Positions 179 through 17,594 of a stretch of 17,619 bases of DNA are shown one piece after another. Each line of letters starts with the position of its first letter. Positions within the stretch are counted from its first letter, which is position 1. This stretch comes from Candidatus Thorarchaeota archaeon (lineage in GTDB: Archaea > Asgardarchaeota > Thorarchaeia > Thorarchaeales > Thorarchaeaceae), in NCBI GenBank assembly GCA_016933575.1, contig JAFGAR010000169.1, positions 1 through 17,619 on the forward strand. Direction: 5' to 3'. Under the pieces are notes generated by a model. It did not search any database and had not been told where the DNA came from. It worked only from the letters and a program-made list of their open reading frames with translations. Made by a program: the position numbers and the translations under genes.

Positions 179-559
179 TTATAGGACCGCAATCGCCTCG
201 ATTTCTACACCAACGTCCTTTGGAAGTCTTGCGACCTCGACTGCGGCCCTTGCTGGTGGCTTATCTGTGAACCAATTGGCATACTCTGCGTTCATCTCTG
301 CGAAGGTATTCATATCTTTAAGAAAGACAGTTACCTTGACCACATTCTCCATGGATGAACCCGCAGCCTCGATCACCCCTTTCACGTTTGCCAGAGATTG
401 TCTTGTCTGCTCAGTGATTGAGCCTGTGACCAATTCTCCAGTGCTGGGATTGGCAGGTAGTTGTCCTGAGCAGAAGACGAATCCATTCGCTTTGATTCCC
501 TGTGAATAGGGTCCAATAGCCTTTGGGGCCTTGTCTGTAGCAATTACTTTGCGACTCAT
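179..559 (-). CDS. ridA: RidA (YjgF/YER057c/UK114) family reactive enamine/imine deaminase
   Basis: 126 aa with family signatures [29 protein letters not shown] and [24 protein letters not shown] (catalytic Arg and Glu present). Confidence 0.95.
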
Positions 560-996: not shown

Positions 997-2628
997 TCAT
1001 GAATGTACGTTTTCAGATGCTGATTCCACTTCATGTCGTATTATCTCTTCACTAATGAATTGGCGAACAGCTGTCTTCAGATCCGCACTGACATACAAGC
1101 TCGGTGCCTTTTGGATATGTTCCCGTATCATCAAGATCGAACTCCTAGGAATGGAGAATGGCAAATATCGATTGATGAGGAAAAGAGCATCTTCGGATCC
1201 ATTGCCAGCTGCCTGCACCAAGCTCGACATGAAACTGCCGATAGGAATGAAGAAGGTATCTTGAATCGTCTTTAGAGAAGATGCGCCTTGAAGCGAAAGG
1301 TGTGACACTGTGCCACAGGTATAGTTGTCTATTGGTGCTGATGTTCCTCTACGTTGAATTGTCGATGGAACGGAGTCACTTTTTATCGCATTGATGGATT
1401 CGCGGACATCTATGATGCCTGTTCCTTCCTTCATTGGATCCAAACCAATGCTCTTTGCTGTTGACATGAATGCTCTCTTCACGAAATCCGGAAGCTCTCT
1501 CCCCCCGAATTCAAGCCCCTTCTCTTCAATAGCATTGAGTACGAGAGCGCAGGCCCCCGCTACATGAGGTGTTGCCATGCTTGTGCCCTGCATTCCAATG
1601 TGATATGGCTCAAAGGTGCATGTATTTCGATTGCATCTTCTTGATCTCAACGATATGATAGCACTTAGACACCCACCGCCACCGCCTCCCGGAGCAAGTA
1701 TGTCCGGTTTACATTGCATACCCAATACAGGGCCTTTTGAAGAGAAATCAGAGAGTGTTTTACTCTTTGTACAGGACCCAACTGTAAGAACACTCTCAAT
1801 GCATCCGGGACTCCCAACGGTCCCCCATCCCTGTCTGCCTTCATTTCCTGCAGCCACTACGCAGATGATTCCAGCAGATACGATCGCCTCCATGACATGA
1901 GCCAAAGTAGATGGTTCAGTGGTTTTTCCACCCAGGCTTGCATTGACGATCTGTGCTCCGTTATCTGCTAGCCACTTTGCACCTTTTGCTATAGTCGAAT
2001 CCCAAGAGGAGCCTCCATCATTTCCAAATATCTTTGCACTGATTAGCTTGGCTTTCGGTGCTACTCCCATATATTTAGAACCGCCACTCGCACATATTCC
2101 TGCGACATGTGTACCATGCCCACAGCCATCCTCTGTGCCTTCACCATCAATGAAACTTGTTTCATTGACAACCTGCAGCTCTGAAAACGAGCTATCAACA
2201 CCTGTATCAAGTATACCAATCGTTACACCCTTTCCTTGATATCCTTCATGCCATGCCTCTGGTGCGTGTATCTGACCCACGGATACATTGAGGCAGTGGA
2301 ACATTGGTATGTCAAGTGATGCTGAAGATGCTTTGCTATTCCCAACGAGTTGGGGCACTTCTGGAAGATATTTAGCTTCCATCTGAACTGAGACCCGACT
2401 CATTCCTTCGATGATTACCGCATCCCTTCCAACATCTCCCAGAGGGCTGGAACGTAATCCTGTTGACTCTATTGCAGATTGTGTCTTTTGGTCATGAAGA
2501 CCACCTGAATAATCGATTCTCTCTGCAACTCTGCTGCCACTGAATGCTATGGACACAATTGTTTCTGGATAGTCCTTTGAGAGCGCAGACGCTGCTCGTC
2601 TGATTAATTGGATCCCAATATTATTCAT
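997..2628 (-). CDS. S8 (subtilisin-family) serine protease with N-terminal pro-region and C-terminal extension, no signal peptide
   Basis: Intact triad motifs IGILDTG (Asp codon 2206-2208), GHGTHVAG (His 2116-2118) and GTSMATPHVAG (Ser 1579-1581), plus oxyanion AAGNEG and FSSKGP...KPDILAPG. The ORF track starts at 2712. I prefer the ATG at 2628 (MNNIG..., 543 aa), which lies 4 nt after the upstream stop and follows AAGGGGGA. Confidence 0.93.
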   Translation of the reverse strand: MNNIGIQLIRRAASALSKDYPETIVSIAFSGSRVAERIDYSGGLHDQKTQSAIESTGLRSSPLGDVGRDAVIIEGMSRVSVQMEAKYLPEVPQLVGNSKASSASLDIPMFHCLNVSVGQIHAPEAWHEGYQGKGVTIGILDTGVDSSFSELQVVNETSFIDGEGTEDGCGHGTHVAGICASGGSKYMGVAPKAKLISAKIFGNDGGSSWDSTIAKGAKWLADNGAQIVNASLGGKTTEPSTLAHVMEAIVSAGIICVVAAGNEGRQGWGTVGSPGCIESVLTVGSCTKSKTLSDFSSKGPVLGMQCKPDILAPGGGGGGCLSAIISLRSRRCNRNTCTFEPYHIGMQGTSMATPHVAGACALVLNAIEEKGLEFGGRELPDFVKRAFMSTAKSIGLDPMKEGTGIIDVRESINAIKSDSVPSTIQRRGTSAPIDNYTCGTVSHLSLQGASSLKTIQDTFFIPIGSFMSSLVQAAGNGSEDALFLINRYLPFSIPRSSILMIREHIQKAPSLYVSADLKTAVRQFISEEIIRHEVESASENVHS

Positions 2629-2632
2629 GAAA

Positions 2633-2965
2633 TCAAATTCCCCCTTGATGCTCGATGCGAGATATGTGTTTGATTTCTTTGACAAAGCTCTGTTTGCTAA
2701 GATCTCTGACAATATCTGGATGCGCCTTGGCGAAGATAATTGGTAATGTGATCTTACCTTCTCTGGTCAGATAGTCATCAATATTCTGAAGTCCTAGTTT
2801 CGTCATTTCTATCTTGATATCATCGAGTTCTGATTGAGTCTTGTAGTCCAAGGTGATCGATAGTCCAATCAACATGTCTACAGCATCAGTATCTATAGCT
2901 TCTAGACTCTTTAGAATCGATTGCAATGTGGAGTCTATTTTTGAGTCTGATTTCAACTTCTTCAT
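2633..2965 (-). CDS. Small stand-alone protein resembling a subtilisin propeptide / inhibitor I9 domain
   Basis: 110 aa. Its ATG abuts the upstream TAG (2966) and it ends 4 nt before the protease ATG. The C-terminal IIFAKAHPDIVRDLSKQSFVKEIK follows the strand-helix-'VK.I' pattern of S8 propeptides. The CDS is well supported; the function is inferred. Confidence 0.65.
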   Translation of the reverse strand: MKKLKSDSKIDSTLQSILKSLEAIDTDAVDMLIGLSITLDYKTQSELDDIKIEMTKLGLQNIDDYLTREGKITLPIIFAKAHPDIVRDLSKQSFVKEIKHISRIEHQGGI

Positions 2966-3828: not shown

Positions 3829-4488
3829 TTAGGCTTCATCTTCGAAGCTAATCTTTGTGTCCTCTTTTTCGTCTCTCTTCGCTGGAGTTCCCTTGGATTT
3901 CCTGTATGCATCAAGCTTCTTTTGCCAATCAGGATGTAATTTTGCGCCTCTTGCCTCCAAACGGATGAGATGATCAATTGATGGTTCTTTGCTTTCGCTC
4001 CTAGATGGCACCGAGCTTATTATAGGTGTCACACCTCTTGCAGCTTTGTACTGCTGACGAGCTTCACTGAGTATCTCTCCAACCTTGGCTCTGTCTGCCA
4101 ATGTTTTTCCGGTCTTCTTCAGCTGATCCTTTACAATAGTCATTATCTCTCCGTCTTTAGCTCCTAGTCTTTTTTCGATGACCTTGATATCTCTTTCACT
4201 TTCCTTGATGTAGCGCTCTGTAACCAGCACAGCTTTGTTTTGTTCTAATCTATCGATAGTGTCTTCCAATTCAGGTGGGGGAAGAATTCCCTTCATCGTG
4301 TAGTCGTTTATCTCTTTCAATGCTAGGTCAATCTCGTGTTGAACTTGGGCAATGGATTTTGATAAGAAATGGATCTCATCTGCATGCCTTAGTATTACAT
4401 CATTAGCTTCTTCACAACGTTTACGAATCTCTTTGTCTTTGAAATCATCACAGTCCATAGTTCTGTCTAACATTCTTTCACTTCCCAC
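3829..4488 (-). CDS. Hypothetical coiled-coil protein, possibly a second divergent ESCRT-III/PspA-like subunit
   Basis: 219 aa. The GTG start overlaps the ATPase stop by 1 nt (TAGTG). Two long heptad-like helices are joined by KGILPPPE, followed by a disordered charged tail. Confidence 0.75.
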   Translation of the reverse strand: MGSERMLDRTMDCDDFKDKEIRKRCEEANDVILRHADEIHFLSKSIAQVQHEIDLALKEINDYTMKGILPPPELEDTIDRLEQNKAVLVTERYIKESERDIKVIEKRLGAKDGEIMTIVKDQLKKTGKTLADRAKVGEILSEARQQYKAARGVTPIISSVPSRSESKEPSIDHLIRLEARGAKLHPDWQKKLDAYRKSKGTPAKRDEKEDTKISFEDEA

Positions 4489-5651
4489 TAATTTGTCTTC
4501 ATTGACGCATGTGTCTTTGCGAACTTGTCATATCGTTTCTTCATTTCAGGAGTTACTGTTGGCTTTATTTTATGTATGGCATCCTTGAAATGTTTCATAG
4601 TGATGGGCAAGTCCGTTACCCCTTTCTTGTCCTGTTCTCTCACAACCGACTTCTTTGTGATTGTACAAATTTCAGTAATTGCAGCTGAGCTGTATTCGTA
4701 CCCTCCGACTGGCCTTGTCATTGTAACTAGATCATTGTAATCCACGCCCTCAATTTTATTGCCTCGTAGCCCGATTTTGAACACCTCTTTTCTGGCTGCA
4801 TCATCTGGAGCTCCAACATAGATGATCTGTGATACTCTACCTGGTCTGATCAATGCTGGGTTTATGTTCTCAGGCTCATTAGTAGCTGCAATAAAGATGC
4901 TCTGTTGCTCATGGCCACTGAACCCATCCAATTGGGTGAGAAACTCATTTGTCGTTCGTGTCATTACTTGCGTTGAGTCCGATCTTGATGATTCGGATAG
5001 TAGTTTGTCAATCTCATCAACGAACAGAATTGATGGAGCTAATTTCCTTGCACAGACGAATGACTTCTCTGCTTTCTTTTCCGTAGCGCCAACCAGTGAT
5101 TCAAGTAGCTGACTAGCTGAAACGATTACTGCCGGTAGACCGAATTCGCCTGCCAAGCATTTGACAAGATATGTTTTGCCACACCCTGGAGGTCCGAACA
5201 ATAGAATTCCTGTCTGAGATGGGATACCTCTTCTCTTGAACTCATCTGGATATTTCAATGGCAACTCGATTGCATCCCGGAGTTCCATTTTCACTTGTTC
5301 CATACCAGCGAGGTCATCAAAACAGAATTTCGAGAATTCGACATATCCACCTGACTCCTTGCAAATATCTGGGATTTCCTTTGACCGTTGAAATCGGTCA
5401 ATCTCGATGGAATCAAATTCATCTCCTTCTTGTATTTGCGCACTACCAGATATCTCATTCATGATTTTGAGAATTTTCTTCATTATATTCTGCGCTACCA
5501 CTCTTTGCTCGGAGTTAGCTGATTTGGCATAGATTTTCAAAGCACCAATAGCGCGCTGATAGTGCATCCTTGCAAGTTGCTTGTTACCTTTCTTCCTAGC
5601 AGCATCGCCAAGCTTCTTCTCTTCCACTGCCTTTTGATATGCCGTACTCAT
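4488..5651 (-). CDS. MIT-domain single-ring AAA+ ATPase (Vps4/CdvC-like architecture)
   Basis: N-terminal three-helix MIT-like segment (AYQKAVEE...GNKQLARMHYQRAIGAL), Walker A GPPGCGKT, Walker B ILFVDEID, sensor-1 AATNEP, arginine finger ALIRPGR and a Vps4_C-like tail (HFKDAIHKIKPTVTPEMKKRYDKF); 387 aa. Confidence 0.9.
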   Translation of the reverse strand: MSTAYQKAVEEKKLGDAARKKGNKQLARMHYQRAIGALKIYAKSANSEQRVVAQNIMKKILKIMNEISGSAQIQEGDEFDSIEIDRFQRSKEIPDICKESGGYVEFSKFCFDDLAGMEQVKMELRDAIELPLKYPDEFKRRGIPSQTGILLFGPPGCGKTYLVKCLAGEFGLPAVIVSASQLLESLVGATEKKAEKSFVCARKLAPSILFVDEIDKLLSESSRSDSTQVMTRTTNEFLTQLDGFSGHEQQSIFIAATNEPENINPALIRPGRVSQIIYVGAPDDAARKEVFKIGLRGNKIEGVDYNDLVTMTRPVGGYEYSSAAITEICTITKKSVVREQDKKGVTDLPITMKHFKDAIHKIKPTVTPEMKKRYDKFAKTHASMKTN

Positions 5652-5671
5652 ATCAAAGCCCTCGACCTAAA

Positions 5672-6319
5672 TTATTGAAATCCAAAATCCTCGTCAGCTT
5701 GCTTTTGCGACTTCTTGTCAGGTTGGTTATCAGCTGTGTCTTCCTTTTCATCACCCAGATCCGCATCGATTTCTCGATAGAGCTCTTCTAGTTCCTCTTC
5801 TTCGAATTCATAATCGATTTCCTGATACTCTTTCTTCATCTCTTCTTCAGTAATTTTTTGCATCTCATCAATCTTTCTGAGCTCCTCTGTTTGCCGAAGA
5901 ACCAGCTTCATCAGCTCACCATCTGCCTTCTTGATAGTACGATAAATTCCTCTATCTACCTTTGCAACCTCCTTTAGAATTGGCATGACCTTGGTCATAT
6001 CAGGAATGATTCCTTCATTCAAGAAATCTCGTCCTTCCTCAAGATTATCAAGATGTGTTTCAAGCTTCTCACGTGCATTTCTTACTGCGGAGTAGTAATT
6101 CTCAATGACCCTTTCTGCCTGCTTTCGTGCCTTATATTCTACGACATCAGAAGGAGTAGGTCTTCGCTTGGCCTCTCTAGCCTCTATCAATCTGTTCCTT
6201 GTTCTGGTCAATCTGATACGATTATCGATTTTAGCATCACGAAGTGCATCTTCTTGGCTTTCTAAGCTATTCACTTTCTTTCTTAGATCTCGCTTCTGCA
6301 ATAATTTAATACGTGCCAT
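5672..6319 (-). CDS. ESCRT-III (Snf7/CdvB/PspA superfamily)-like helical protein
   Basis: 215 aa, a typical ESCRT-III size. Basic N-terminal helical hairpin, acidic C-terminal half with a helix-5-like EFEEEELEELYREIDADLG, and a disordered tail. It lies 20 nt upstream of the MIT-AAA gene. The CDS is clear; the family call is inferred from pattern and context. Confidence 0.68.
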   Translation of the reverse strand: MARIKLLQKRDLRKKVNSLESQEDALRDAKIDNRIRLTRTRNRLIEAREAKRRPTPSDVVEYKARKQAERVIENYYSAVRNAREKLETHLDNLEEGRDFLNEGIIPDMTKVMPILKEVAKVDRGIYRTIKKADGELMKLVLRQTEELRKIDEMQKITEEEMKKEYQEIDYEFEEEELEELYREIDADLGDEKEDTADNQPDKKSQKQADEDFGFQ

Positions 6320-6353: not shown

Positions 6354-6594
6354 TTACCTGCATTGTAGAGAATGAGAAACATCCTGCTAATCTTCTATCC
6401 TATGTAGAATCATCATTACACCGACATCTCCTCATTCCCTAAGTGCACAGCTTACAAATACAAGACAACAAAATAAATCCTACTAGTGGATATTTGTTGC
6501 AACAGAAATAGTCCAGATATAACAGGAATCGTTATTATAGACCGATTTCATAGAATACTAGCGGTAGTTGTTCCACTAGAGAGGTGTGCGGTGT

Positions 6595-7599
6595 TTGTCA
6601 GAGGACTTCGATCTAATAGATATCCTAGCAGGATTCATCTTATTTCTCCCGTTTCGGGGAGCAATTACTTTCTTTCAAGCAGTATACGCAGTGGCAAAGT
6701 ACTTCGGTAAGCGAAAGCCAGAGAAGAAGAAAATAGTAGTCGAGAATGCCCTGAACCAGATCAAGGCCAACTTAGATCAGATCGCCAATCTAACGCTGAC
6801 AGATCTTTCATGTCCTATTGATGATATAGTAAAAAGGAACATAGACTTCGAAAATCCACTTGTAAACATCTCAACATCTCTTGAGAACTCAAGTCTTCGC
6901 GGCATTTATATCAAGAAGTATGAATCCGTGCATCCTCATATTGCCTACTGCTATGCTGCATCTGATTTCTCTCGAAAGTTGATCGAGAGTCTTTGTGTGA
7001 GAATCTCCAAATCCGTTGATGATAGACATGTCATTATTGTAATGCTCCAGGTGAAGGAGATACTGAAAACAATTCAAATGGTCACAAAGAGAATCAAAGA
7101 GTTATCTTCAGAGGATGAAAAAGTCAGCTCGGATATCCTTTCCGAACGTTTCCTCAATGAGATTTGCCATCTGGATATCGCGAAACGATTGGTAGAAACC
7201 TATGGCTTCGCATTCATCCCAGCACATCTGACTAATACAGAATATCTTGAGAACCCCCTGGTGCTACGAGCATTGTTCGAAGATCATCTCCTGGAGTTTC
7301 TGAACGACCATCCTCAAACAAATCTGAATCAGCTCGCAAAAGGATTGAATATCAAAGAAGAACTATGCAGGACATTATTCTTATCTTTGGAGTTTGACTC
7401 TGAGGTTCATCCTCTCCTACTCAAGAATGATGAGATTTGGCATAGCGCGATTCTCCTTGAGAATCTAATGAACGAAACTATGAGAAACCCGAAGGAGATA
7501 GTGAAGTGGGCTGATGACCTGGGGATAGACTATGCGCTAGCCTCAAGTCTTTTGATAGATGGAATGATTCAGCAGGTATCAGATTCTCTAGTGAAATAG
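6595..7599 (+). CDS. Hypothetical protein with an N-terminal membrane anchor, helical middle and C-terminal winged-helix-like region
   Basis: The ORF track starts at GTG 6586, but SD GAGGTG (6581-6586) with an 8-nt spacer favours TTG 6595. Hydrophobic ILAGFILFLPFRGAITFFQAVYAVA is followed by basic KYFGKRKPEKKK. LLEFLNDHPQTNLNQLAKGLNIKEELCRTLFLSL...LL..DEIW follows a wHTH pattern. Confidence 0.8.
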   Translation: MSEDFDLIDILAGFILFLPFRGAITFFQAVYAVAKYFGKRKPEKKKIVVENALNQIKANLDQIANLTLTDLSCPIDDIVKRNIDFENPLVNISTSLENSSLRGIYIKKYESVHPHIAYCYAASDFSRKLIESLCVRISKSVDDRHVIIVMLQVKEILKTIQMVTKRIKELSSEDEKVSSDILSERFLNEICHLDIAKRLVETYGFAFIPAHLTNTEYLENPLVLRALFEDHLLEFLNDHPQTNLNQLAKGLNIKEELCRTLFLSLEFDSEVHPLLLKNDEIWHSAILLENLMNETMRNPKEIVKWADDLGIDYALASSLLIDGMIQQVSDSLVK

Positions 7600-7601
7600 A
7601 A

Positions 7602-10523
7602 TCATCCATTATGAGCAAAAATGGTTGCACTCTTCATCTGATTCCACTCTCCACAGAATGGACATTGTATTCTAGCAGTGTCTTCCCTTATTTGAACAAA
7701 TCTTGATAGTTCTGGGTATTTTGCTTCATCCCTGATAGCAGATATCACAAAATCTATCCTATAGCTACCAAGGGGTTTTCCTTCCATTGACCAATTCCGA
7801 ATTTGAGATCTGCACCCTTCGCAACGGTATGGCGATTCATTGAGTCCTTCCAAATAGCTCTTGATGGAATTGAAAATACTCGCTATTCGATCTTTCATTG
7901 CACTAGGTGCATATACCTCACCCTTTACCCACGGCTCAAGTCCTTTGCCTCTCGAGGCAATTTGGATTGTTGTCATTATATAGGATGTCTTCTCAGGAGA
8001 GCTCGGGAAAAGGAGATGTTTCTTTACTGTTTCTGATTTCCCAACTTCAGCTAACGAGATCGAGTTGAATGAAGATAGCTCTCGGTCTACAAGAATTTCT
8101 ATTTCCTCTCTTAGCTCAGCTCGGTCATTAGTTGTTTCAATCATTACTCGTACATCATGAACGCTACGGTCATAATTCTCCGCGGCATATGATATGAAAT
8201 CGGTCAAAGAACGCTTGCCGATATATCTGCTGATCTTCGGGAATGGGAATATCTTCGGACCAAAGGTAGTTTCTCGCCAAGTTCCATCCATAAGAATACT
8301 GTATGTTGCAGATGCTTCAATCTGAATCTCTCCCGATACATATCCATAGATATCAAAGACAATCTTTGCTGTTCCATGAGGTGCAATCCCCCCGATCACA
8401 TGCTCATAGCTAGTTTCGAGATGAATGGGGCTAAGACTTGCTGATATCCCTATCAAATTGGCTATGAACCGGATATTTCCTATCTCCGTTTCTGCGTCAT
8501 TCCTCACCATGAACGTTATCTTTCCATGATTCGCTATTTTTTCGAAGTTCGGTTCGAATGAAACTTCTCCTATCAATCCCTTTCCACATTCAACCTTTTC
8601 ATCCTTGGCTTTATTCTCTATTATCTTTTTGAGGTGGTTATCAAGTTCATATGAATTTCCAAGAATCTTGAAAGCATCTTCTATCGTTTGATCGAATCTC
8701 AGAGTCATTTTTCTATAGGATTCACATACCTCCTGCTGAGTATCTCTTTTCAGAGTCGCTTTATTTCGGTATTCTGAATATACTTGAAATGTTGAGTCTA
8801 GTATGATTCTGTGTTTGTCCATCATTCCAGTAACTAGCTTTGCTGAAAGTAGGTCCTTTACATAGCTCAAGACAACAGCACCTTCTCTCACTGTGTTTAC
8901 CATAGAATTGAATGCTGTTTCGTCTATCTCCTTCGACAGGAGAACCTTGCAATTGGCAATAACATCAGAGATTTTCGAAATGACCAAGGTCAGTATTTTC
9001 TCAACATGTGCATTAAATATGCTGTCGAGTTCATTTGACACATTTTCATGTGAGGATGAAGCAGACTGACGAATCCTCGAACCCAATCTAGAGATGTGAT
9101 TGATTACCTTCTGATAATTGCCCTTGTCCACATTTTCAATCACTTCGACTTCAGTAGAGTCTATCTCATCGATGATGTTCTCCTTGAGATCGGTCTCATA
9201 GCGACTCTGAATTTCATCTATCTGAGCAGTCAATGTCTTTGCTTGTTGAACTTTTATCTGATCGGGATGAATCTTCATGACTTCTCCCCACATTCTTCTG
9301 GCATTCCCGAGTCTGACAAGTACTTCATCCGTTTCCATTCCTGCTGCCCAGCTCATATTGCCATTGAACAAGTTCAAAGCTGTCTTGTAGAGAGCATCTG
9401 GTGATCCTTTCACGATAAGTGCCTGAAGTGACTCCTTGATGAGATCCTCAATATGATAGAAGATAACAGATTCCTCAGTTTCCGGAAGGTAGACTCTTCT
9501 TGAATTTCTGATCATACTCCCTTCAGGCTTGATTTCACACAGTTCGGTTATCATACCCGGGTCTTCTCTACCTGGTGCAATAGCATGTGGGTCAACAATG
9601 AATAGATGGATGTCTCCGTCTCCTGCCCCCAGTGCCAAGTGTAGCTTCTCCTCTCCTTCTTCTTCATGTATCGCTACCAAATCTGCAGTAAAGACTCCAC
9701 AATCAATAATCCTGTGCAGATTCTCAGTCCATTGGAAGGTCTTCTCACCCGTATGATAGATGAATTGCGCTTGCCCTGAGATGTCTACTCCAACTGCGAC
9801 AAATCCCCCTTGACTTAGCATTTTTGCTGAAATACCAGTGATTGGATTCTCAAATTGCATCTCACGGAGTGTGACACTTACCCTGTTGTAATATGTTCTA
9901 ATTTTCGCTTTATGATCTCCACACGCCGCAACAAAGACCACATAATTTCTCTGATTACTGACATCAACGTAGGTCTTCACTACATCATGACTTGTTTCAG
10001 ACCCCTCGAAAATAAGATTTGGCTTTAGACGGATATAATCCTTGGTCGTTTTTTTCTCATCTGTTTGGAAGTATTTCACAGAACCATCTTCTTGGACTAT
10101 CATCAATTCTGCTCTTCTATCTCTATCAATATCGAAGCTCTGAATTTCCATACTTGGTTTCATCGACATTCCAGTGTCGACTCTGATATCCTCAAGGCTT
10201 ATTCCATCGTCCCGAACTATGATTCTCTTCATTAAGACAGATTCGCCAGGACCCTCTAGCATTGCCAGTTCCAAGCTTTGATCGCCATCGAAATCTCCCA
10301 ATGCAATAGAAAAGATCGGTCTATTCACTTGCTCTTCAAACACTTTGTCAAATGAGTGTCCATCTGAAATATACCCCCAGAGAGGATATTTCTTGCGATC
10401 TATTCCCATCTCGATATGTGGTTCTGGAGCGATGAAAACGATGATTCTGTTCGCCTTTGGTTTTGGATCGAAGGCAGCGTCGAATGCCATAATACGAAGT
10501 GGATGCTCATCAGTGGGATCCAA
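7602..10523 (-). CDS. Large multidomain protein: FG-GAP/WD-like beta-propeller, helical region, Ig-like sandwich, alpha/beta platform-like region and C-terminal zinc ribbon
   Basis: 973 aa (985 aa if the CTG at 10559 is used). FG-GAP-like IALGDFDGDQSLELAM and FDIDRDRRAELMIV; WD-like LALGAGDGDIHLF; Ig-like GKITFMVRNDAETEIGNIRF...IAPHGTAKIVFDI...GEIQIEASATY; CEGC and CPFC pairs. Confidence 0.85.
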   Translation of the reverse strand: MDPTDEHPLRIMAFDAAFDPKPKANRIIVFIAPEPHIEMGIDRKKYPLWGYISDGHSFDKVFEEQVNRPIFSIALGDFDGDQSLELAMLEGPGESVLMKRIIVRDDGISLEDIRVDTGMSMKPSMEIQSFDIDRDRRAELMIVQEDGSVKYFQTDEKKTTKDYIRLKPNLIFEGSETSHDVVKTYVDVSNQRNYVVFVAACGDHKAKIRTYYNRVSVTLREMQFENPITGISAKMLSQGGFVAVGVDISGQAQFIYHTGEKTFQWTENLHRIIDCGVFTADLVAIHEEEGEEKLHLALGAGDGDIHLFIVDPHAIAPGREDPGMITELCEIKPEGSMIRNSRRVYLPETEESVIFYHIEDLIKESLQALIVKGSPDALYKTALNLFNGNMSWAAGMETDEVLVRLGNARRMWGEVMKIHPDQIKVQQAKTLTAQIDEIQSRYETDLKENIIDEIDSTEVEVIENVDKGNYQKVINHISRLGSRIRQSASSSHENVSNELDSIFNAHVEKILTLVISKISDVIANCKVLLSKEIDETAFNSMVNTVREGAVVLSYVKDLLSAKLVTGMMDKHRIILDSTFQVYSEYRNKATLKRDTQQEVCESYRKMTLRFDQTIEDAFKILGNSYELDNHLKKIIENKAKDEKVECGKGLIGEVSFEPNFEKIANHGKITFMVRNDAETEIGNIRFIANLIGISASLSPIHLETSYEHVIGGIAPHGTAKIVFDIYGYVSGEIQIEASATYSILMDGTWRETTFGPKIFPFPKISRYIGKRSLTDFISYAAENYDRSVHDVRVMIETTNDRAELREEIEILVDRELSSFNSISLAEVGKSETVKKHLLFPSSPEKTSYIMTTIQIASRGKGLEPWVKGEVYAPSAMKDRIASIFNSIKSYLEGLNESPYRCEGCRSQIRNWSMEGKPLGSYRIDFVISAIRDEAKYPELSRFVQIREDTARIQCPFCGEWNQMKSATIFAHNG

Positions 10524-10555: not shown

Positions 10556-13500
10556 TCAGTGCTCTCCCTCCTTCGGATGCTCTAGTTTTCGTGCAGTCTT
10601 ATCTATACATTCTTCCAGTGGTCCTCTCATATCCTTAGGATACGCACCTGCAGTCCTTCTGACCACTTCATGGTAATTGTCGAATCTTCCATCACTGAGC
10701 AATTTGCATGTCTCTTCGAAATACTTGCAGAGATTTGGAATCTCCTTTGTCAGTTCCTCTCTTTGGATTTTTCTCCGCCAGTTGTGCACAGTGATTTCTC
10801 CTGTTGTTCTCAGCGTTTCAATAGTGAAATCCAGACATTTGGCAGGTTCTGTGAATTCCTCTTCCCTTTCTCTCATTATGCTTATCATCTCTCGAAGAAG
10901 AACTATGAGATGTGCGTATCCAGCTATATCTAACGTTTCTTTTTTCAAAGATGAAAGAGAACTATAAATCTCCGAGAGCCAAAATCCTTTCCCAATTTGG
11001 GGATGCAATCTAGGATCCCTTATCAGCTTCTCAAGACTATCAATGACATATCCATCCTGATTTTGACGTCGTAGCAATTTTGAAACTGCGTCTAAGGTAT
11101 GATCATGGAGAGGATTGATGTCCAACATCAAATTGACATAGTCTTGAATGATTGCAAGAACTTTCTCCTTCTCCGCCTTTTGAGTTATAGCGCTCAACGA
11201 ACTGAGATATACCTCCTTTCTATCAGCGGCAAGGTCTTGAACAAATCTGGAGGTCCAATCAATAGACTCCGTTTCCACGAGAACATCAGTGTATATTTCC
11301 ATAATACTGCATAACGTATCGGTAGGTAGAGGAATTTTCCTTATTTCTGAAGTTTCTAGTATGTCTCTGAGGATTCTTGCCTTATCCAGCGGACTATTCT
11401 TTGGATTCTCAAGAAATGATTGGATGACAAGCCTCCCAGCATCTGGAATACTCTCCTTTGGAATATCTTTTATGGTGTCCCGTAGATCCCTCCAAATTTC
11501 CTCACTTCCTTGCCTTTCTATTCTAATACTATCTTTTATTTTAAAGTAGATATGCAGAGCTTTGCCAGGTTCATTTTTGATGCATCTATTGAAGACCTGT
11601 TTTAGCTGCTGTCCAATCTCATGTTTGTAAAGATTAGATGTCTCTTTCCTATCTCTAATCTTGATTAGCCAATCGACTGTGAAATCGAAGCCCCATATTT
11701 CTGAAGTAGACTCGACCAAATTCTCAAGATTCATATCTCTGCTACTTTCAGTCAAAGGAACGATGTACTTGTTCAATTGCTTGAAGTATTGTTCTCTGAA
11801 ATCTTCTGTCAGTCGCTGTTCATCATTAATGGCATCAGTCAGACTGGATAGATATCGTAATGCGAGATGTATCTGTTCTCCTTGAAAATGAGTGCTTTTA
11901 GTGAATTCGAAAATTCTCTTATTTCCTTTCCAAGAATCAGCATTCTCTCTAAGTAGCTTGATTGTAAATGCTATTTCATTTGAATCTCCTATCTCAAGCA
12001 TTCTGAGCAGATATGTTTCTAGAAGAGCATCCCAATTTTGAATTTCAATCGCCTTCGAGTTATGAATTCCAATTGTGTACACAAGCCATTTCAACAATGT
12101 TTCCGAGTCCTTCCCGAAGAATCTGATCAGTGCTTCAGAATCAGTTTGCATTGCTTTCCCAAGATACTTGGGATTGGCTTCGGTCATGAACGATGATAGT
12201 GTGAGTAATAGACTGTAAATGATATTTGCTGATACATGTTCGAATAACTTCTCTCCTTCTTCCATGAAATATTTCCATGATACGATCAGAGTGGATTTCA
12301 ACACTCTTTCTTTAATTACCTCATCCAGTTTTGGATATCTACTCTTTAGTTCTCCAAGTGCCTTCTCGAATCCGTCCACATTTGCTTCAGTAAGCATATT
12401 GAGTGGAGATACTATACTGACAATTGATTCTGTGTTATTTGTTGAGAGGGATTTCAATGATACTAATAACATCTCGTAATTCTTGGGATTTGGAGTATTG
12501 ATGTATTGCTGAACAGCGAGTAACTCAAAATTCGCCAACCAACTATCTGGAGCATTTACCTTAGTAGTTATGATTGGTGATAGATATGACGAATATTCTA
12601 GAAACAAGAAAGGCTTTTCGAGAGATGATAGTGTTTTTTCAGCTACAGCGAGTACATAACTGGGATTATCAGAATTCGATTCAACGAGGAGATTCAAAGC
12701 AGGACCTAAAAAGGATGGGATTCCTGTTTCCAGATAATATAATGCAATCTCCATGAATATCTCTGACACATTCCGGATTTCTTTGAGTCCTTCTGGATGC
12801 TTCTGTGCTATGTCTAGTATTTCATTTGAGAATCTTTCTAATGCTGATGTTCTTACACTTTCGTGTTTCTTGACATGCTTCTCTAGGTTATTCAGGAGAC
12901 TCGCACTATGATTTAACAAGGCTTTGAGTTGCTTCTCGCTGTCCGTCGTCCGAAGTCTTGTGCTGATGAAAGCCAAGGCAATATCATATTGCTTATTTCC
13001 TAACAGCGTTGAACTTACCAAATCGAAGATGGAGTCTGACAGCTCGTCTGGGTAGTTAGTGAAAAAGGAATCAAATATTGGAAAACCATACTTTTCAATA
13101 GCATTCCGATTGTCTGAATATGCGATCTTTTCAAGCGATTGTTCCGCTGAGCTTCTTGGATTATCTAGTATCCTAGCATCCAAAATTCGGGTCATGTATT
13201 CACTCAGTACTTCTAGATCTGGATCTCGTGAACCAATATTCCGAATAAGATTCGATGTTGTTTGGTTAATGATTTCGAGTGTATTCGAATGATAGGTTCC
13301 TCCTAACAAATCTGCTACGATACCTGCGATTCTTTGCCATTCTGATGTTGTTTTTGCTTTGTTAGTGAGGATTCTAAGCTGAGTATTTCCTATTTCAGTT
13401 ACTATCTCAGGAAGTGATGCAATTTCACGCAATCTCTCTAGACTCTTCATATCATCTGTATCAATGAATTGATGTAGGAGACATTCAGAATAGAGTCTTA

Positions 13501-14977
13501 TTGTATTGTCCTGAAAAAGTCCGTTCTCATTCTCAGCAACCTCCCATGCCAATTCCTGAAACACATTCTTTGGAATTGCATCATTCAGCACTCCGATCGT
13601 ATCCATAAGATATTCATCACTCAGTACAAAATCGGCTTGTTCCAAAATAATTCTAGATATCGTAAGTGTTTCATTCATCTCCAGTTTTCTATCATGTTCA
13701 AGAATAAGCCTAATGATACTCTCCTCCATTCCTTCTCTATCCAACAGGAGCGGATGGAATTGCTCTTGCGAAAAGAGGTCCTGAATGATAGTTTGACAAG
13801 TGTCAAGGTAATCGATTGATGCTTCTGAGGAAGCTAACTCAAGAATCTTCTGCACAACAATATAGTATCTCTCGATATCAAGTGTCACCAGCACCCGTGA
13901 GTATCCCTTAAGCAGTGCTTGATGTTTCATCTTAATGAAACTGTCACAGCAATCAGCTGCTTCCAAGAATTTGATCAGCGCTCCGATGGGCGTTCGTTCT
14001 CCAATTTCATTAGCTTCTTCTAGTAGTTCTAAAGCCCTGACGTAATTGTTGATTTCAATTGTCACATTTTGATCATTGATTCCTGCTTCCTCAAAGGCTT
14101 GTTCAATTCTTTTGATTAGAGAAATAGCATCAAATATGGATTGATTCAGCATCTTTAGGAGCATACTTGAGAACGTGGCGTACTTGACATTCAATTTGGA
14201 GTTAGGTCTTGTTAGATCTAATACAGGTGTGGCGGGAGGGAGGCTCATCTCTAGACGACTGTAATTTGCCTGAGGTGTGATCAGTAAATTATAGAATTTT
14301 GATTCTATGTTATAGTCCATACAAAAGGTGTGCAATCCGATTTGGAATCTTATCGGGGCTGGAATCAGCTCGAGAATGATCTCTCCTAAGGTATCAGTGT
14401 CTCTATTATCGTCTGTGACAACTAACACTTGATTACCCTGAAGCAGGCCCTCTATCACATCAACAATCTGCTCGTTTCGAATACCTTCGCTGACAATCTT
14501 TGATGCAAGCTCAGAAGACATTTCAGAAATGATTGATTGTCCTTCCTCGCCCATTCTTTTACTGTACTTATCGATAATCTCTGAGAGGTCGATCGGAGGA
14601 AGTCCTTGATCTGCAATTCTCCTGCTTTCAGCTAGGTCTGCGTTTCGAATGAACGATTGTCGCAAATAGTATGGATTTCCACCCAACTTCTGATACTGGT
14701 TCTTCTTCATAAGAATCGTATGTGCGAAAAGCCGATTTGGTCGGTTGTCCTCATCAACCCCCGCGTTGAAGATATAGGTGATTGCCATTTGAGAATCTGG
14801 AACTTCATATGCAGTCATTGCATCAGTGAAGGTTATCTCCGGTGGGATTTGTCTTCGCAGAGAAGATCTTACAGCCACTAAATCTTGAATAGACTTTCTA
14901 ACACCGGTTTCTGCTATGATTTGAGCACCAGTACTTCTCGCGGTTTTGATTGATGTATAGGCGATTTGATCTATCAC
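10556..14977 (-). CDS. GTPase-associated protein 1 (GAP1-N2-like N-terminus, DENN-like middle) fused to a long alpha-solenoid
   Basis: N-terminal QIAYTS...GAQIIAETG and DEDNRPNRLFAHTILM match the GAP1-N2 pattern as I recall it (QLYYTS...G.Q...D..GR.GNFFAH). About 1200 aa of Leu/Glu/Ile-rich helical repeats follow. The ORF track starts at 15031. I prefer GTG 14977 (MIDQIAYTS, 1473 aa), which follows GGGGAGG plus 9 nt just after the upstream stop. Confidence 0.8.
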   Translation of the reverse strand: MIDQIAYTSIKTARSTGAQIIAETGVRKSIQDLVAVRSSLRRQIPPEITFTDAMTAYEVPDSQMAITYIFNAGVDEDNRPNRLFAHTILMKKNQYQKLGGNPYYLRQSFIRNADLAESRRIADQGLPPIDLSEIIDKYSKRMGEEGQSIISEMSSELASKIVSEGIRNEQIVDVIEGLLQGNQVLVVTDDNRDTDTLGEIILELIPAPIRFQIGLHTFCMDYNIESKFYNLLITPQANYSRLEMSLPPATPVLDLTRPNSKLNVKYATFSSMLLKMLNQSIFDAISLIKRIEQAFEEAGINDQNVTIEINNYVRALELLEEANEIGERTPIGALIKFLEAADCCDSFIKMKHQALLKGYSRVLVTLDIERYYIVVQKILELASSEASIDYLDTCQTIIQDLFSQEQFHPLLLDREGMEESIIRLILEHDRKLEMNETLTISRIILEQADFVLSDEYLMDTIGVLNDAIPKNVFQELAWEVAENENGLFQDNTIRLYSECLLHQFIDTDDMKSLERLREIASLPEIVTEIGNTQLRILTNKAKTTSEWQRIAGIVADLLGGTYHSNTLEIINQTTSNLIRNIGSRDPDLEVLSEYMTRILDARILDNPRSSAEQSLEKIAYSDNRNAIEKYGFPIFDSFFTNYPDELSDSIFDLVSSTLLGNKQYDIALAFISTRLRTTDSEKQLKALLNHSASLLNNLEKHVKKHESVRTSALERFSNEILDIAQKHPEGLKEIRNVSEIFMEIALYYLETGIPSFLGPALNLLVESNSDNPSYVLAVAEKTLSSLEKPFLFLEYSSYLSPIITTKVNAPDSWLANFELLAVQQYINTPNPKNYEMLLVSLKSLSTNNTESIVSIVSPLNMLTEANVDGFEKALGELKSRYPKLDEVIKERVLKSTLIVSWKYFMEEGEKLFEHVSANIIYSLLLTLSSFMTEANPKYLGKAMQTDSEALIRFFGKDSETLLKWLVYTIGIHNSKAIEIQNWDALLETYLLRMLEIGDSNEIAFTIKLLRENADSWKGNKRIFEFTKSTHFQGEQIHLALRYLSSLTDAINDEQRLTEDFREQYFKQLNKYIVPLTESSRDMNLENLVESTSEIWGFDFTVDWLIKIRDRKETSNLYKHEIGQQLKQVFNRCIKNEPGKALHIYFKIKDSIRIERQGSEEIWRDLRDTIKDIPKESIPDAGRLVIQSFLENPKNSPLDKARILRDILETSEIRKIPLPTDTLCSIMEIYTDVLVETESIDWTSRFVQDLAADRKEVYLSSLSAITQKAEKEKVLAIIQDYVNLMLDINPLHDHTLDAVSKLLRRQNQDGYVIDSLEKLIRDPRLHPQIGKGFWLSEIYSSLSSLKKETLDIAGYAHLIVLLREMISIMREREEEFTEPAKCLDFTIETLRTTGEITVHNWRRKIQREELTKEIPNLCKYFEETCKLLSDGRFDNYHEVVRRTAGAYPKDMRGPLEECIDKTARKLEHPKEGEH

Positions 14978-14996
14978 TTCATACTGCCTCCCCAAA

Positions 14997-15893
14997 TCAG
15001 AATGGACCCGAATCTGAAACCCACCCATCATGGTCTATTGGTGTTTCATAGAGATGCATTCCACCTCTGCTGCCTCCGTGTCGGTAGAATGGTTGATTCT
15101 CACTTTCAAGGCGTTGAAACCATATCAGTGGTTCAACGACATTCTTTGGCGCAAGTTCCTTCTTGCATCCCATTCCCTTCTTTTCTCTACCCATAACCCA
15201 TCTGAAGCCCCCGAGGGATGAAATCGGGAAGGTGACAAAACGTGTTCCTAGATGGGCTTTCAATCGTGTTATCAAATCACTGGAATGCTTGAAGAGGTAG
15301 GGATACGTATTATTGACATGTGGAAATGCATCTGATTTTGTAATAAGAAGTGCCACAGCTAGTTTACTCCAATCATCCCCATGAATTTCTTCTAGGGTCC
15401 TAACGATATTCTTTAGAAAAATGGTTTGATTATATCCATCCGCCTTGATGTCTGGATCCCAAAAGAAGATGAAATTCTGCGAAGATTTCATAAGATCCAA
15501 GATGAGCGAATCTTCCATTTTCAATTGAGTTTCATTCTCGTTTCTCAGGTACGCTCGAAGATTTCTGTAATCAGTTCTGAATAGTTGTTCGAGGTCTTCT
15601 CCCGAAGCATCCTTTGTCGAAACCCTCAGGACGTTTCTACCAGTGTGATCCTTCACCAGCATCCCCGCATCGTAAAGGTTACTCCGAAGTGTGGGATCTA
15701 GAAAACCATTCTCTTTTAGCTTCGTTAATTGATCCTTATAGTACATCTCAGAGTCATCACCTTTTGGAAAACTTACCAAGTAGTTTTGATATCGATAGTC
15801 CTCTGTCAATGAATAGTACAGAGCAATCAGATAGGTCGATTTTCCACTTGCAGGTGTGCCTAGAATGCAGACACTATCACTCCTAACCGCCAT
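14997..15893 (-). CDS. TRAFAC-class small GTPase (DO-GTPase-like), copy 3
   Basis: G1 GTPASGKST, G2 LDPT, G3 DASGE, G4 ITKSD, G5-like ISS and C-terminal LAPKNVVEPLIWF. Start taken as ATG 15893 (298 aa) after GGGGAG, overlapping the upstream gene by 11 nt; the ORF track gives 15971. Confidence 0.88.
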   Translation of the reverse strand: MAVRSDSVCILGTPASGKSTYLIALYYSLTEDYRYQNYLVSFPKGDDSEMYYKDQLTKLKENGFLDPTLRSNLYDAGMLVKDHTGRNVLRVSTKDASGEDLEQLFRTDYRNLRAYLRNENETQLKMEDSLILDLMKSSQNFIFFWDPDIKADGYNQTIFLKNIVRTLEEIHGDDWSKLAVALLITKSDAFPHVNNTYPYLFKHSSDLITRLKAHLGTRFVTFPISSLGGFRWVMGREKKGMGCKKELAPKNVVEPLIWFQRLESENQPFYRHGGSRGGMHLYETPIDHDGWVSDSGPF

Positions 15894-16734
15894 TTTTCTT
15901 CTCCCCTTTCTTGCTATCCAATACGATCTTGATAACCCAGAAGAGAGTTTCAGCAACTCCCTTTGGTTCAATTGGTGGATTTGGTTTGTACTCTATCTTC
16001 ACTTCTTGTCCATTATTGGTCTTCACAATTCTGGTCTTACCTACTCCACTGCAATTCATGATTGCGTATGCACCTAGATTCTTTTCATGGATACCCATGG
16101 TCACATGAAGGACCTTTCTGGCATAATTATCAAAATCTGGGAATTTTTCCTGATAGAGATCCCATTGTGTGAAGACAAAAAGGATGGGTGGCATCTTTTT
16201 TGGAGAATCGATGTTCTTTCTACTAATTATCTCATCAATGACCTCAGCACACATTAGATCCTGAGATGTATCGAAAACCAGTCTTTCTGAATTAGTCAGA
16301 TTCCCTTTTGGATCAATGAGAAACATGAACACATTGGATTTGTCAATCAAGCTCACTATCTTTTCTACATAGGGCCGATAGGGATTAAGCTTTCTTCGAT
16401 GCCCATCATGCCAGATAACACCATGTAATCCGGGCATGAATAGATCAGCAATCATCTCCCCTGGAAGATCAATGGTCCGATACGTGACATGGCCTGAGTT
16501 GTCATGCTTGACGATGTCGAATATCACTTGGTCATCTGCGAAGGCCTGTGTCGATGATGGCCATTCTCCACTCTGAAGCTCAGCAACCCTGTCCTCGATG
16601 TAGTCCTCGACGCTCCGAAGGTAGTAGCTACGATTGTATCGTTTCTGGATCTCGTAGACCAAGGCTGCTGCGTAGACAGTCTTGCCCGATGCCTTTTGGC
16701 CGAACAATGCAAGGTCGATGTTGATAGCAGTCAA
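15883..16734 (-). CDS. TRAFAC-class small GTPase (DO-GTPase-like), copy 2
   Basis: G1 GQKASGKT, G2 WPSST, G3 DLPGE, variant G4 FTQWD and C-terminal PIEPKGVAETLFW. TTG start in a TTGA 4-nt overlap, with SD GAGGAG. Confidence 0.88.
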   Translation of the reverse strand: MTAINIDLALFGQKASGKTVYAAALVYEIQKRYNRSYYLRSVEDYIEDRVAELQSGEWPSSTQAFADDQVIFDIVKHDNSGHVTYRTIDLPGEMIADLFMPGLHGVIWHDGHRRKLNPYRPYVEKIVSLIDKSNVFMFLIDPKGNLTNSERLVFDTSQDLMCAEVIDEIISRKNIDSPKKMPPILFVFTQWDLYQEKFPDFDNYARKVLHVTMGIHEKNLGAYAIMNCSGVGKTRIVKTNNGQEVKIEYKPNPPIEPKGVAETLFWVIKIVLDSKKGEKKNGG

Positions 16735-17594
16735 TTGTTCTCCTCATCCCCCTCTCTACTTTCGTCCTTTTTCCTACTATTCACAGAACTGATTATCCAA
16801 AAGAGTGTCTCAGCTACTCCTCTTGGCTCGATTGGAGGATTCGGCTTGTATATTGTCTTTGACCCTGTTCCGTTTCTGATTCTCTCCAGCTTTGCCTTTC
16901 CTATGCCACTACAATTCATCAGTTCATATGAGCCTAAATTTCTGGCATGCGTCCCGAGTGTAAAATGGAGGACCCTTCTAGCGTAAGTTTCGAACTCCGT
17001 GTACCTATTCTCATAAAGGTCCCATTGCGTGAAGACAAAGAGGATGGGTGGCATGTGATTTGATGTAGTCACATTCTTCCTTCTGGTAATCTCATGAATT
17101 ATTTCCATGCACATCAAATCTTGAGCTATGTCCTCGCTTAGTTGCTCGTTCTCATCTTCGCATCCTTTGGGATTGATAAGGAACATGAACGCATTGGATT
17201 TGTCAATTAGATTGCAAATTCGTTCTACATACTCTCGATACGGCCTCTTGCTTCTGAGCTCTTCTTTTCTCCATACAACGCGGTTCTCGCCAGGAATGAA
17301 AAGACCCTCGATGATCTCACCGGGAAGATCGATGGTCCGATACGTGACATGGCTTGAGTTGTCATGCTTCACGATGTCGAACATCACCTGTTCGTCTGCG
17401 AAGACCTGTGTCGATGATGGCCATTCTCCTCTCTGAAGCTCGGCGATCCTATCCTCGATGTAGTCCTCGACATTACGAAGGTAGTAGCTACGATTGTATC
17501 GTTTCTGGATCTCGTAGACCAAGGCCGCTGCGTAGACCGTCTTTCCCGATGCCTTTTGGCCAAACAACGCCAGATCGATATCTATCGAAGTCAT
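16461..17594. repeat. Direct repeat: 5' ends of the two paralogous GTPase genes (16461-16734 vs 17321-17594, offset 860)
   Basis: Manual ungapped alignment gives about 30 mismatches in 274 nt (~89% identity), including a perfect 50-nt run (16616-16665 = 17476-17525). Confidence 0.92.
16731..17594 (-). CDS. TRAFAC-class small GTPase (DO-GTPase-like), copy 1
   Basis: 287-aa paralog of copy 2 with the same G1/G2/G3/TQWD motifs. The ATG is preceded by GGGAGAGTGA. Confidence 0.88.
   Translation of the reverse strand: MTSIDIDLALFGQKASGKTVYAAALVYEIQKRYNRSYYLRNVEDYIEDRIAELQRGEWPSSTQVFADEQVMFDIVKHDNSSHVTYRTIDLPGEIIEGLFIPGENRVVWRKEELRSKRPYREYVERICNLIDKSNAFMFLINPKGCEDENEQLSEDIAQDLMCMEIIHEITRRKNVTTSNHMPPILFVFTQWDLYENRYTEFETYARRVLHFTLGTHARNLGSYELMNCSGIGKAKLERIRNGTGSKTIYKPNPPIEPRGVAETLFWIISSVNSRKKDESREGDEENN

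Follow-up and report, generated by a model that had tools for sequence, protein, structure and literature searches.

We analysed a 17.6-kb stretch of DNA (hereafter the window), which is the whole of contig C160 (GenBank JAFGAR010000169.1) in a 3.47-Mb Asgard archaeal bin. Our subject is a pair of adjacent genes, the first encoding a helical protein of 215 amino acids (aa; P0001) and the second an AAA ATPase (P0002). The pair is real and is most likely a divergent ESCRT-III/Vps4-type pair serving a rare accessory system linked to GTPases and a protease. More specifically, we consider it probable that P0001 falls within the ESCRT-III (Snf7) superfamily as a highly divergent representative, with P0002 as its dedicated Vps4-like remodelling ATPase, and that both act within a GTPase-switched module.

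The P0001 gene lies upstream, 20 nucleotides (nt) from the P0002 gene, and is preceded by an A/T-rich TATA-like stretch and a GGAG-type site. Since other metagenomes preserve the two genes in synteny (61% and 71% identity at the best locus, L003), they are real genes and not chance open reading frames (ORFs). A binning artefact was considered and rejected: the GC content of the contig (0.418 against 0.423) and its tetranucleotide distance fall inside the range of same-size contigs. The original prediction described a 215-aa helical protein with a basic N-terminus and an acidic C-terminus just upstream of an ATPase with MIT, AAA and Vps4_C parts. Gene layout, AlphaFold2 (AF2) models, charge counts, Pfam and Foldseek all agree with that description.

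Profile similarity of the upstream family to Snf7

Proteins found upstream of ATPase relatives make up, together with P0001, a positional family of 17 sequences, six of which form the subfamily of the window (famA). With hhalign this subfamily matches famB at 90.5% probability (E 1.4e-6) and seven further family members at 96% (E 4e-9). Compared with 24 Asgard Snf7 sequences, the 17-sequence family reaches a probability of 94.2% with an E value of 1.1e-7 and a score of 54.4. The controls score considerably lower: 29.2 for the reversed profile, 16.7 +/- 2.7 for 40 heptad-block shuffles (maximum 24) and no more than 23.5 for 13 further helical families taken from the same loci. Each canonical Asgard Snf7 subfamily is matched at about 90% over 71-161 columns, the A and B types being equidistant. 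Both families align from residue 2 onward and through the hairpin tip, and common features include an N-terminal M-x-[FL]-[FL]-x-KKK start and a G[KN]xPP hairpin tip at the position of the Snf7 G-N. At the level of sequence profiles, the similarity of the upstream helical family to Snf7 is significant and control-tested.

The charge distribution of P0001 fits ESCRT-III as well, because the N-terminal half is basic (26 K+R against 18 D+E in residues 1-100) and the C-terminal half acidic (11 K+R against 29 D+E in residues 141-215). The AF2 model is all-helical, with helices at residues 2-51, 56-100, 108-189 and 203-211, a mean local confidence (pLDDT) of 75.7 and a predicted template modelling score (pTM) of 0.29. 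Structural alignment of this model with VIA-align finds CHMP2A/3, Asgard ESCRT-IIIB, Snf7 and Vipp1 at Z 7.0-8.2. A feature search of the Atlas returned a single Snf7-tagged cluster at rank 14 (16% of its members), which serves as a lead only.

A number of results nonetheless weigh against the assignment of P0001 to ESCRT-III. P0001 has no Pfam match at E <= 1, which includes Snf7 (PF03357) and PspA_IM30 (PF04012), and its 16 positional relatives give no Pfam Snf7 or PspA match at E <= 1 or 0.1. On its own, famA matches Snf7 weakly (42.8% against all sequences, 0.7% and 8% against the two subfamilies), so the assignment of P0001 is transitive. The AF2 model contains four helices only at its low pTM, and a Foldseek search of the PDB with it yields nothing at E <= 0.001. 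VIA-align scores ESCRT-III chains no higher than Bud6, Mediator and further coiled coils, in a register unlike that of the hhalign alignment. In the tail no canonical MIT-interacting motif (MIM1 or MIM2) is recognised. The ESCRT-III membership of P0001 is therefore not shown by structure, and the window subfamily rests on a transitive profile link. The ESCRT-III-like identity put forward in the original prediction thus gains a controlled family profile match to Snf7. The structural comparison that was proposed as its check shows no preference for CHMP2A/3, Asgard ESCRT-IIIB, Snf7 or Vipp1 over generic coiled coils.

Other searches added little. NCBIfam gives no match to P0001, and a shape search of the ESM-Atlas with the model gives nothing specific. 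Only three relatives occur among 1.84 billion representative proteins. Matches to PDB sequences are limited to ribosomal protein L22 at E 0.04 or above and were discarded as spurious. PF04012 was found in none of 151 Asgard genomes at E <= 1e-5, against 9 of 14 control genomes, for which reason there is no PspA comparator profile.

The extreme C-terminus differs between subclades of the P0001 family. The last 11 residues of P0001 (window 5672-5704) read QKQAD[EK]DFGF(Q), a motif conserved only in the subclade of the window (P0009 and P0010 too), and the wider family carries a conserved DPE[LF]..[IL]PEE[IL]KRK instead. An ATPase-recognition motif may thus have been swapped between subclades. 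Co-folding of the P0002 MIT region (residues 1-85) with the P0001 tail (residues 150-215) gave a score of 0.27 against a mark of 0.32 and is used neither way.

Further helical proteins of these loci were also compared. The 219-aa P0003 was rejected as a second ESCRT-III subunit, with hhalign probabilities of at most 8.6% against the P0001 family and below 1% against Snf7, and only a generic helical hairpin from the Atlas. The small helical families F1-F6 of the sister loci do not match Snf7 with hhalign; F1 reaches 39.6% against the P0001 family, which is a hint only.

Architecture and phylogeny of the ATPase

P0002 consists of an MIT domain, a single intact AAA cassette and a C-terminal Vps4_C helix. 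Pfam detects AAA at E 1.5e-36 and Vps4_C at 23.9 bits (cut-off 21.3). The MIT assignment comes from modelling: Pfam MIT reaches E 0.47 and is not called, and the N-terminus is an MIT three-helix bundle according to an AF2 model of residues 1-90, built from the family alignment, with helices at 3-21, 24-44 and 47-67 and a pLDDT above 90 over residues 3-67. The top Foldseek matches of this model are nearly all MIT domains (VPS4A/B, yeast Vps4, Sulfolobus Vps4, katanin p60, NRBF2, MITD1, spartin), fitting with a root mean square deviation of 1.3-2.7 A over about 70 residues and, for most, a target-normalised template modelling score of 0.72-0.84. Weak agreement comes from hhalign, which aligns the N-termini of the P0002 family with those of canonical Asgard Vps4 at 50% probability (E 1.6e-4, against 0.026 for the reversed control). 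MIT domains are specific readers of ESCRT-III tails.

Eleven full-length relatives of P0002 align with the same build. Across the family the Walker A and B motifs, sensor 1 and the arginine fingers are invariant, as are GPPGCGKT, DEID and RPGR. For the phylogeny we used IQ-TREE on 46 AAA modules comprising 17 rows of the family, 13 canonical Asgard Vps4, Cdc48 D1/D2 and PAN, with TACK, euryarchaeal and eukaryotic members left out. The family is monophyletic at 100/99 (n=17) and groups as sister to the 13 canonical Asgard Vps4 with an ultrafast bootstrap (UFBoot) of 98 and an SH-aLRT (approximate likelihood ratio test) value of 94, to the exclusion of Cdc48 D1/D2 and PAN. It is thus the sister clade of Asgard Vps4 and is not nested within the Vps4 clade.

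Several features of the ATPase speak against a plain Vps4 identity. Its arginine-finger region, ALIRPGR, is of the Cdc48 type, whereas the Vps4 of the host genome has AL--RSRF at this place. Pore loop 1 is non-aromatic (SLVGATEK) in P0002 and likewise in its closest orthologue, so P0002 departs from the aromatic pattern K-[WY]-x-G-E-S-E-K expected of Vps4/CdvC. Of the 11 aligned family members, six have KY[VIF]GE[SA]EK and three more keep the tyrosine (YVGNTEK). The best NCBIfam model for P0002 is CDC48, and the CdvC model gives 158.7 bits against a cut-off of 650. In sequence, the AAA core is closest to the Cdc48 D2 unfoldases.

The family also carries distinctive cysteines. An invariant Pro-x-x-Cys (IPxEC) lies in the linker just before the AAA core (P0002 residues 94-97), and two more invariant cysteines (P0002 residues 200 and 329) are found in an F-x-C-A motif after pore loop 1 and in the lid. 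These cysteines are missing from the canonical Vps4 of the same genome. They could act in redox chemistry, bind a metal or serve as a docking motif.

Conservation of the pair, its cassette and its surroundings

The pairing of the two families is highly consistent. In 14 of 15 distinct loci that could be assessed, the gene directly upstream of the ATPase belongs to the P0001 family and encodes some 190-220 aa, and the ATPase relatives (35-71% identity) occur on Thor-, Odin-, Baldr-type and other Asgard contigs. The sole exception is a locus with an in-frame stop in the ATPase gene: at L089 (G162:C136:48-4157) a solitary member of the ATPase family is interrupted by an in-frame TAA, is not preceded by a helical gene and is followed by a succinyl-CoA ligase-like gene. 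This copy is probably a decaying remnant.

The original prediction treated the two genes as a two-gene unit. Instead they head a conserved six-gene cassette whose last gene encodes an S8 protease, and links of the pair to DO-GTPase/GAP1-like genes recur. The order of ESCRT-III-like gene, ATPase, coiled coil of ~190-220 aa, protein of ~270-300 aa, protein of ~100-115 aa and S8 protease is kept in the window and in L003, L019 (a Thorarchaeota metagenome-assembled genome), L020 and L023. In the window and its closest relatives, the transcription unit of the pair also includes two more helical proteins, a small protein and a cytoplasmic S8 protease. Seven other loci (L024, L025, L085, L086, L088, L090 and L091) keep the pair, but the protease is not seen in their readable downstream DNA; other unknown proteins and FG-GAP propellers are found in its place. 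Because these protease-free loci retain the pair, the core consists of the ESCRT-III-like gene and the ATPase, not of the ATPase and the protease. The features of the window are listed in Table 1.

Table 1. Features of the 17.6-kb window
Feature	Position	Strand	Basis or remark
ESCRT-III-like helical protein P0001, 215 aa	5672..6319	-	First gene of the cassette; sequence, charge, helices, family profile
Vps4-like AAA ATPase P0002, 387 aa	4488..5651	-	MIT-like N-domain; acidic/Cys linker (P..C invariant); single AAA cassette; Vps4_C helix at the C-terminus
MIT-type three-helix bundle, P0002 residues 3-67 (modelled)	5451..5645	-	AF2 model and Foldseek
Coiled-coil protein P0003, 219 aa, cassette member	3829..4488	-	Start overlaps the ATPase stop by 1 nt
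Cassette protein P0004, 280 aa	2966..3808	-	Conserved in L003, L019 and L020
Cassette protein of 110 aa, directly upstream of the protease	2633..2965	-	Position kept and weak similarity in L003, L019 and L020; no Pfam family
S8 subtilase, last cassette gene	997..2628	-	Peptidase_S8 E 1.8e-52; same position in L003, L019, L020 and L023
Protein of 337 aa, hydrophobic N-terminus, divergent from the ESCRT-III-like gene	6586..7599	+	L003 orthologue in the same position, 40% identity
FG-GAP/propeller-like protein of 973 aa, C-terminal zinc ribbon	7602..10523	-	Homologues beside the cassette in L003, L019, L020 and L023
Helical giant of 1491 aa, GAP1-like	10556..15031	-	GAP1-N2 E 0.04, below cut-off; weak homologue in L023
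Three tandem DO-GTPase1-type genes	14997-15971, 15883-16734, 16731-17594	-	PF19975 E 3.2e-9, 4.5e-6 and 7.5e-9

GTPase genes are a recurrent neighbour of the pair. DO-GTPase1 genes flank it in five loci (the window, L003, L019, L023 and G177), four of which are known with the full cassette. The three genes of the window, two of them above the PF19975 cut-off, are the sole DO-GTPase1 matches in the genome. The giant protein beside them matches GAP1-N2 with 14.4 bits, below the cut-off of 24, and no window protein has an FNIII match in the Pfam scans. When the longest ORFs are taken, neighbouring reading frames among the three GTPase genes and the giant gene share 4 to 89 nt (14997-15031, 15883-15971 and 16731-16734), which suggests either tight translational coupling or true starts downstream of the longest-ORF starts.

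Some sister loci have a modified arrangement. In L024 and L025 (Baldrarchaeota-type) three or four proteins of ~200 aa precede the ATPase, only the ATPase-adjacent one matching the ESCRT-III-like family; the ATPase is followed by a protein of 390-400 aa, an FG-GAP propeller and an HTH_Mga-like protein of 273 aa, with no protease. Two tandem ESCRT-III-like paralogues lie upstream of the ATPase in L092 (G177:C516:23980-28071), with two DO-GTPase1 genes divergently adjacent (G177:C516:22215-23886). In L092 the module takes a multi-subunit form that is closer to ESCRT.

A few details concern the remaining genes of the window. The ATG at 2628 was taken as the start of the protease, the alignment with its orthologue running end to end (1-535 on both sequences). 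P0004 was tried as a VPS28-like protein (Pfam E 0.015) and rejected, as its hhalign probability with nine Asgard Vps28 is 0.2% and it scores below the reversed control. No family was found for the divergently transcribed 337-aa protein. A gene of the RidA/L-PSP endoribonuclease family (179-559, minus strand, E 6e-46) is the only ordinary housekeeping-type gene of the contig and marks the edge of the system.

The canonical machinery is encoded elsewhere in the host genome. A genome search with Pfam Snf7 finds two positive genes, on contigs C5 and C131, and the canonical Vps4 (409 aa, MIT E 4.5e-5) lies on C131, divergently next to Snf7; these are contigs other than that of the window. As the original prediction stated, cdvA, ubiquitin and ESCRT-I/II genes are not recognisable here: Pfam scans detect none of these families among the window proteins. 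It further proposed an accessory, divergent branch dedicated to this locus. In favour of this, P0002 is a paralogue separate from the C131 Vps4 beside the canonical Snf7, and the P0001 family is fixed upstream of the P0002 family. The proposal has to be adjusted in that the ATPase lies outside the Vps4 clade, as its sister, with an RPGR region and a non-aromatic pore loop.

Nearly every relative searched has the canonical Snf7/Vps4 set. Searches for the new ATPase family detected it in 11 of 400 Asgard genomes (~3%), in 8 of 85 genera and in none of the 27 other species of the genus of the window. The module is a rare and patchily distributed accessory system of Asgard archaea, of which the pair is the invariant core. 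Separately, Pfam VPS28 was found in 0 of 19 genomes of the genus of the window (G000-G018) against 9 of 12 other Asgard genomes, so that Vps28 is either lost or strongly diverged in this genus.

Competing explanations and meaning

By analogy with known ESCRT-III systems, P0001 would polymerise through its basic N-terminal hairpin, probably on a membrane. Its acidic C-terminal part would keep the protein soluble and offer its tail to the MIT domain of P0002, and a hexamer of P0002 would extract or turn over P0001 subunits. The DO-GTPases and their giant partner may gate this process, with the S8 protease as a co-output. Overall, this would be a GTPase-switched module whose output is ESCRT-III-like polymer dynamics together with proteolysis. 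Given its patchy distribution, involvement in conflict or envelope stress is more likely than in housekeeping division or sorting. A bolder version holds that some Asgard archaea possess a third ESCRT-III lineage, unrecognised before, which has a Vps4 paralogue to itself; a DO-GTPase/GAP1-like switch would gate its assembly, and its output would be delivered via the dedicated cytoplasmic protease. This we put forward tentatively, with the balance somewhat against it.

The main rival, which we judge unlikely yet worth serious attention, is an unfoldase-protease module in the style of the IetAS anti-phage pair. Its core would be the AAA ATPase and the S8 protease, with P0001 and P0003 as non-ESCRT coiled-coil adaptors, inhibitors or substrates that are unfolded to release or feed the protease. 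IetAS, too, is an operon that pairs an AAA ATPase with a subtilase, and the rival can point to the conservation of the cassette up to its terminal protease in five loci, to the Cdc48 D2-like sequence of the AAA core and to structure searches that do not separate P0001 from generic coiled coils. PADLOC matches IetA (E 1.1e-29) and IetS (E 1.6e-15), and the NCBIfam models IteA/IteS match as well. However, the scores are far under the equivalog cut-offs (IetA 93.9 bits against 510, IetS 29.4 against 900); we rejected IetAS membership, the PADLOC matches reflecting general AAA and S8 folds. Our module has four additional genes between or before the two, and IetA has no recorded MIT domain, whereas P0002 is modelled with this reader of ESCRT-III tails. 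In seven sister loci the helical gene and ATPase persist with no S8 gene in the readable downstream DNA, so that the protease is dispensable there, and the Snf7 similarity of the P0001 family survives the reversed, shuffled and in-locus controls.

Distinctly less probable is a eukaryote-like trafficking pathway, in which housekeeping vesicle or cargo sorting, and not conflict or stress, would be the joint task of the GTPases, the propeller/helical/ear protein and the ESCRT-III/Vps4-like pair. The recurrence of the propeller protein beside the module is in line with such a role. Against it stand the very patchy occurrence (11/400 genomes, 8/85 genera, 0/27 congeneric species), the dedicated cytoplasmic protease in the operon and the membership of the GTPases in the DO-GTPase family, which is described in conflict systems (PMC7159879). 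Very improbable, finally, is a chance resemblance, with P0001 an unrelated coiled coil, its Snf7 similarity compositional and its place beside the ATPase without ESCRT-like meaning: the absent Pfam match, the weak signal of famA alone and the commonness of Z 7-8 matches for helical models would suit it, but the score of 54.4 far exceeds the shuffles (mean 16.7, sd 2.7), the reversed control (29.2) and the 13 other helical families (<=23.5), the alignment starts at residue 2 of both families with the hairpin tip in register, and the adjacency to the MIT-AAA gene holds in 14/15 loci.

The preferred reading, a divergent ESCRT-III/Vps4-type pair in an accessory system, can be set beside systems already described. 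Reviews present Asgard ESCRT-III as a simple two-subunit system (IIIA and IIIB) served by one Vps4 (PMC7619361, PMC11804906). Our module resembles this canonical set (Souza 2025, PMC11804906; Makarova 2024, PMC10936438) in having a helical protein of ~200 aa, basic at the N- and acidic at the C-terminus, directly upstream of an ATPase with MIT, a single AAA cassette and a C-terminal helix; its helical family has profile similarity to Snf7 and its ATPase family is sister to Vps4. It differs in that P0001 has no Pfam Snf7 match and the ATPase, with its RPGR region, lies outside the Vps4 clade. Moreover, the module has no ESCRT-I/II or ubiquitin genes and is coupled to an S8 protease and DO-GTPases, and only some 3% of Asgard genomes have it, against nearly all for the canonical set.

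Makarova et al. (2024) described variant archaeal ESCRT systems, among them 'Halo_adaptin' of haloarchaea, where a Vps4-like ATPase follows a derived ESCRT-III of the PspA-like kind beside propeller 'adaptin-like' proteins and a GTPase (PMC10936438). The strongly derived ESCRT-III/PspA-like gene preceding a Vps4-like ATPase is common to this system of Halobacteriales and to our module. In Halo_adaptin, however, the ATPase has a VAT-N domain and no MIT, and the GTPase is of the CetZ/tubulin type, whereas our module has MIT, DO-GTPases and the protease cassette and resides in a different host phylum. Neither a protease nor a DO-GTPase is mentioned by Makarova et al.

DO-GTPase/GAP1 systems, mainly bacterial, were defined by Kaur, Burroughs, Iyer and Aravind (2020), in whose paper the words 'ESCRT', 'Vps4' and 'Snf7' do not occur (PMC7159879). 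The ternary conflict systems of the GAP1-N2 type share with our module the tandem DO-GTPase paralogues by a giant helical protein (here with a faint GAP1-N2 match), the variable effector genes and the patchy distribution; different are the missing FNIII-repeat component, the GAP1 match below cut-off and the mainly bacterial hosts of those systems. A survey covering the PSP (phage shock protein) system reports a DO-GTPase-family gene in some psp operons (PMC11237479). Our literature search found no published description of the Asgard module.

The module joins three themes that have been described separately, namely the variant ESCRT systems of Makarova, the DO-GTPase systems of Aravind and the AAA-subtilase pairs. 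If our reading is true, it would widen the known range of the superfamily among the archaea most closely related to eukaryotes and would mean that ESCRT-type machinery has been recruited as the output module of a GTPase-switched accessory system. It would also provide a small set of soluble proteins with which to probe ESCRT-III/Vps4 recognition without a canonical MIM. Should the third-lineage version hold, the module would be a GTPase-controlled membrane-remodelling or cell-fate machine, uniting a 'bacterial' conflict switch with a 'eukaryotic' ESCRT engine in the lineage closest to eukaryotes.

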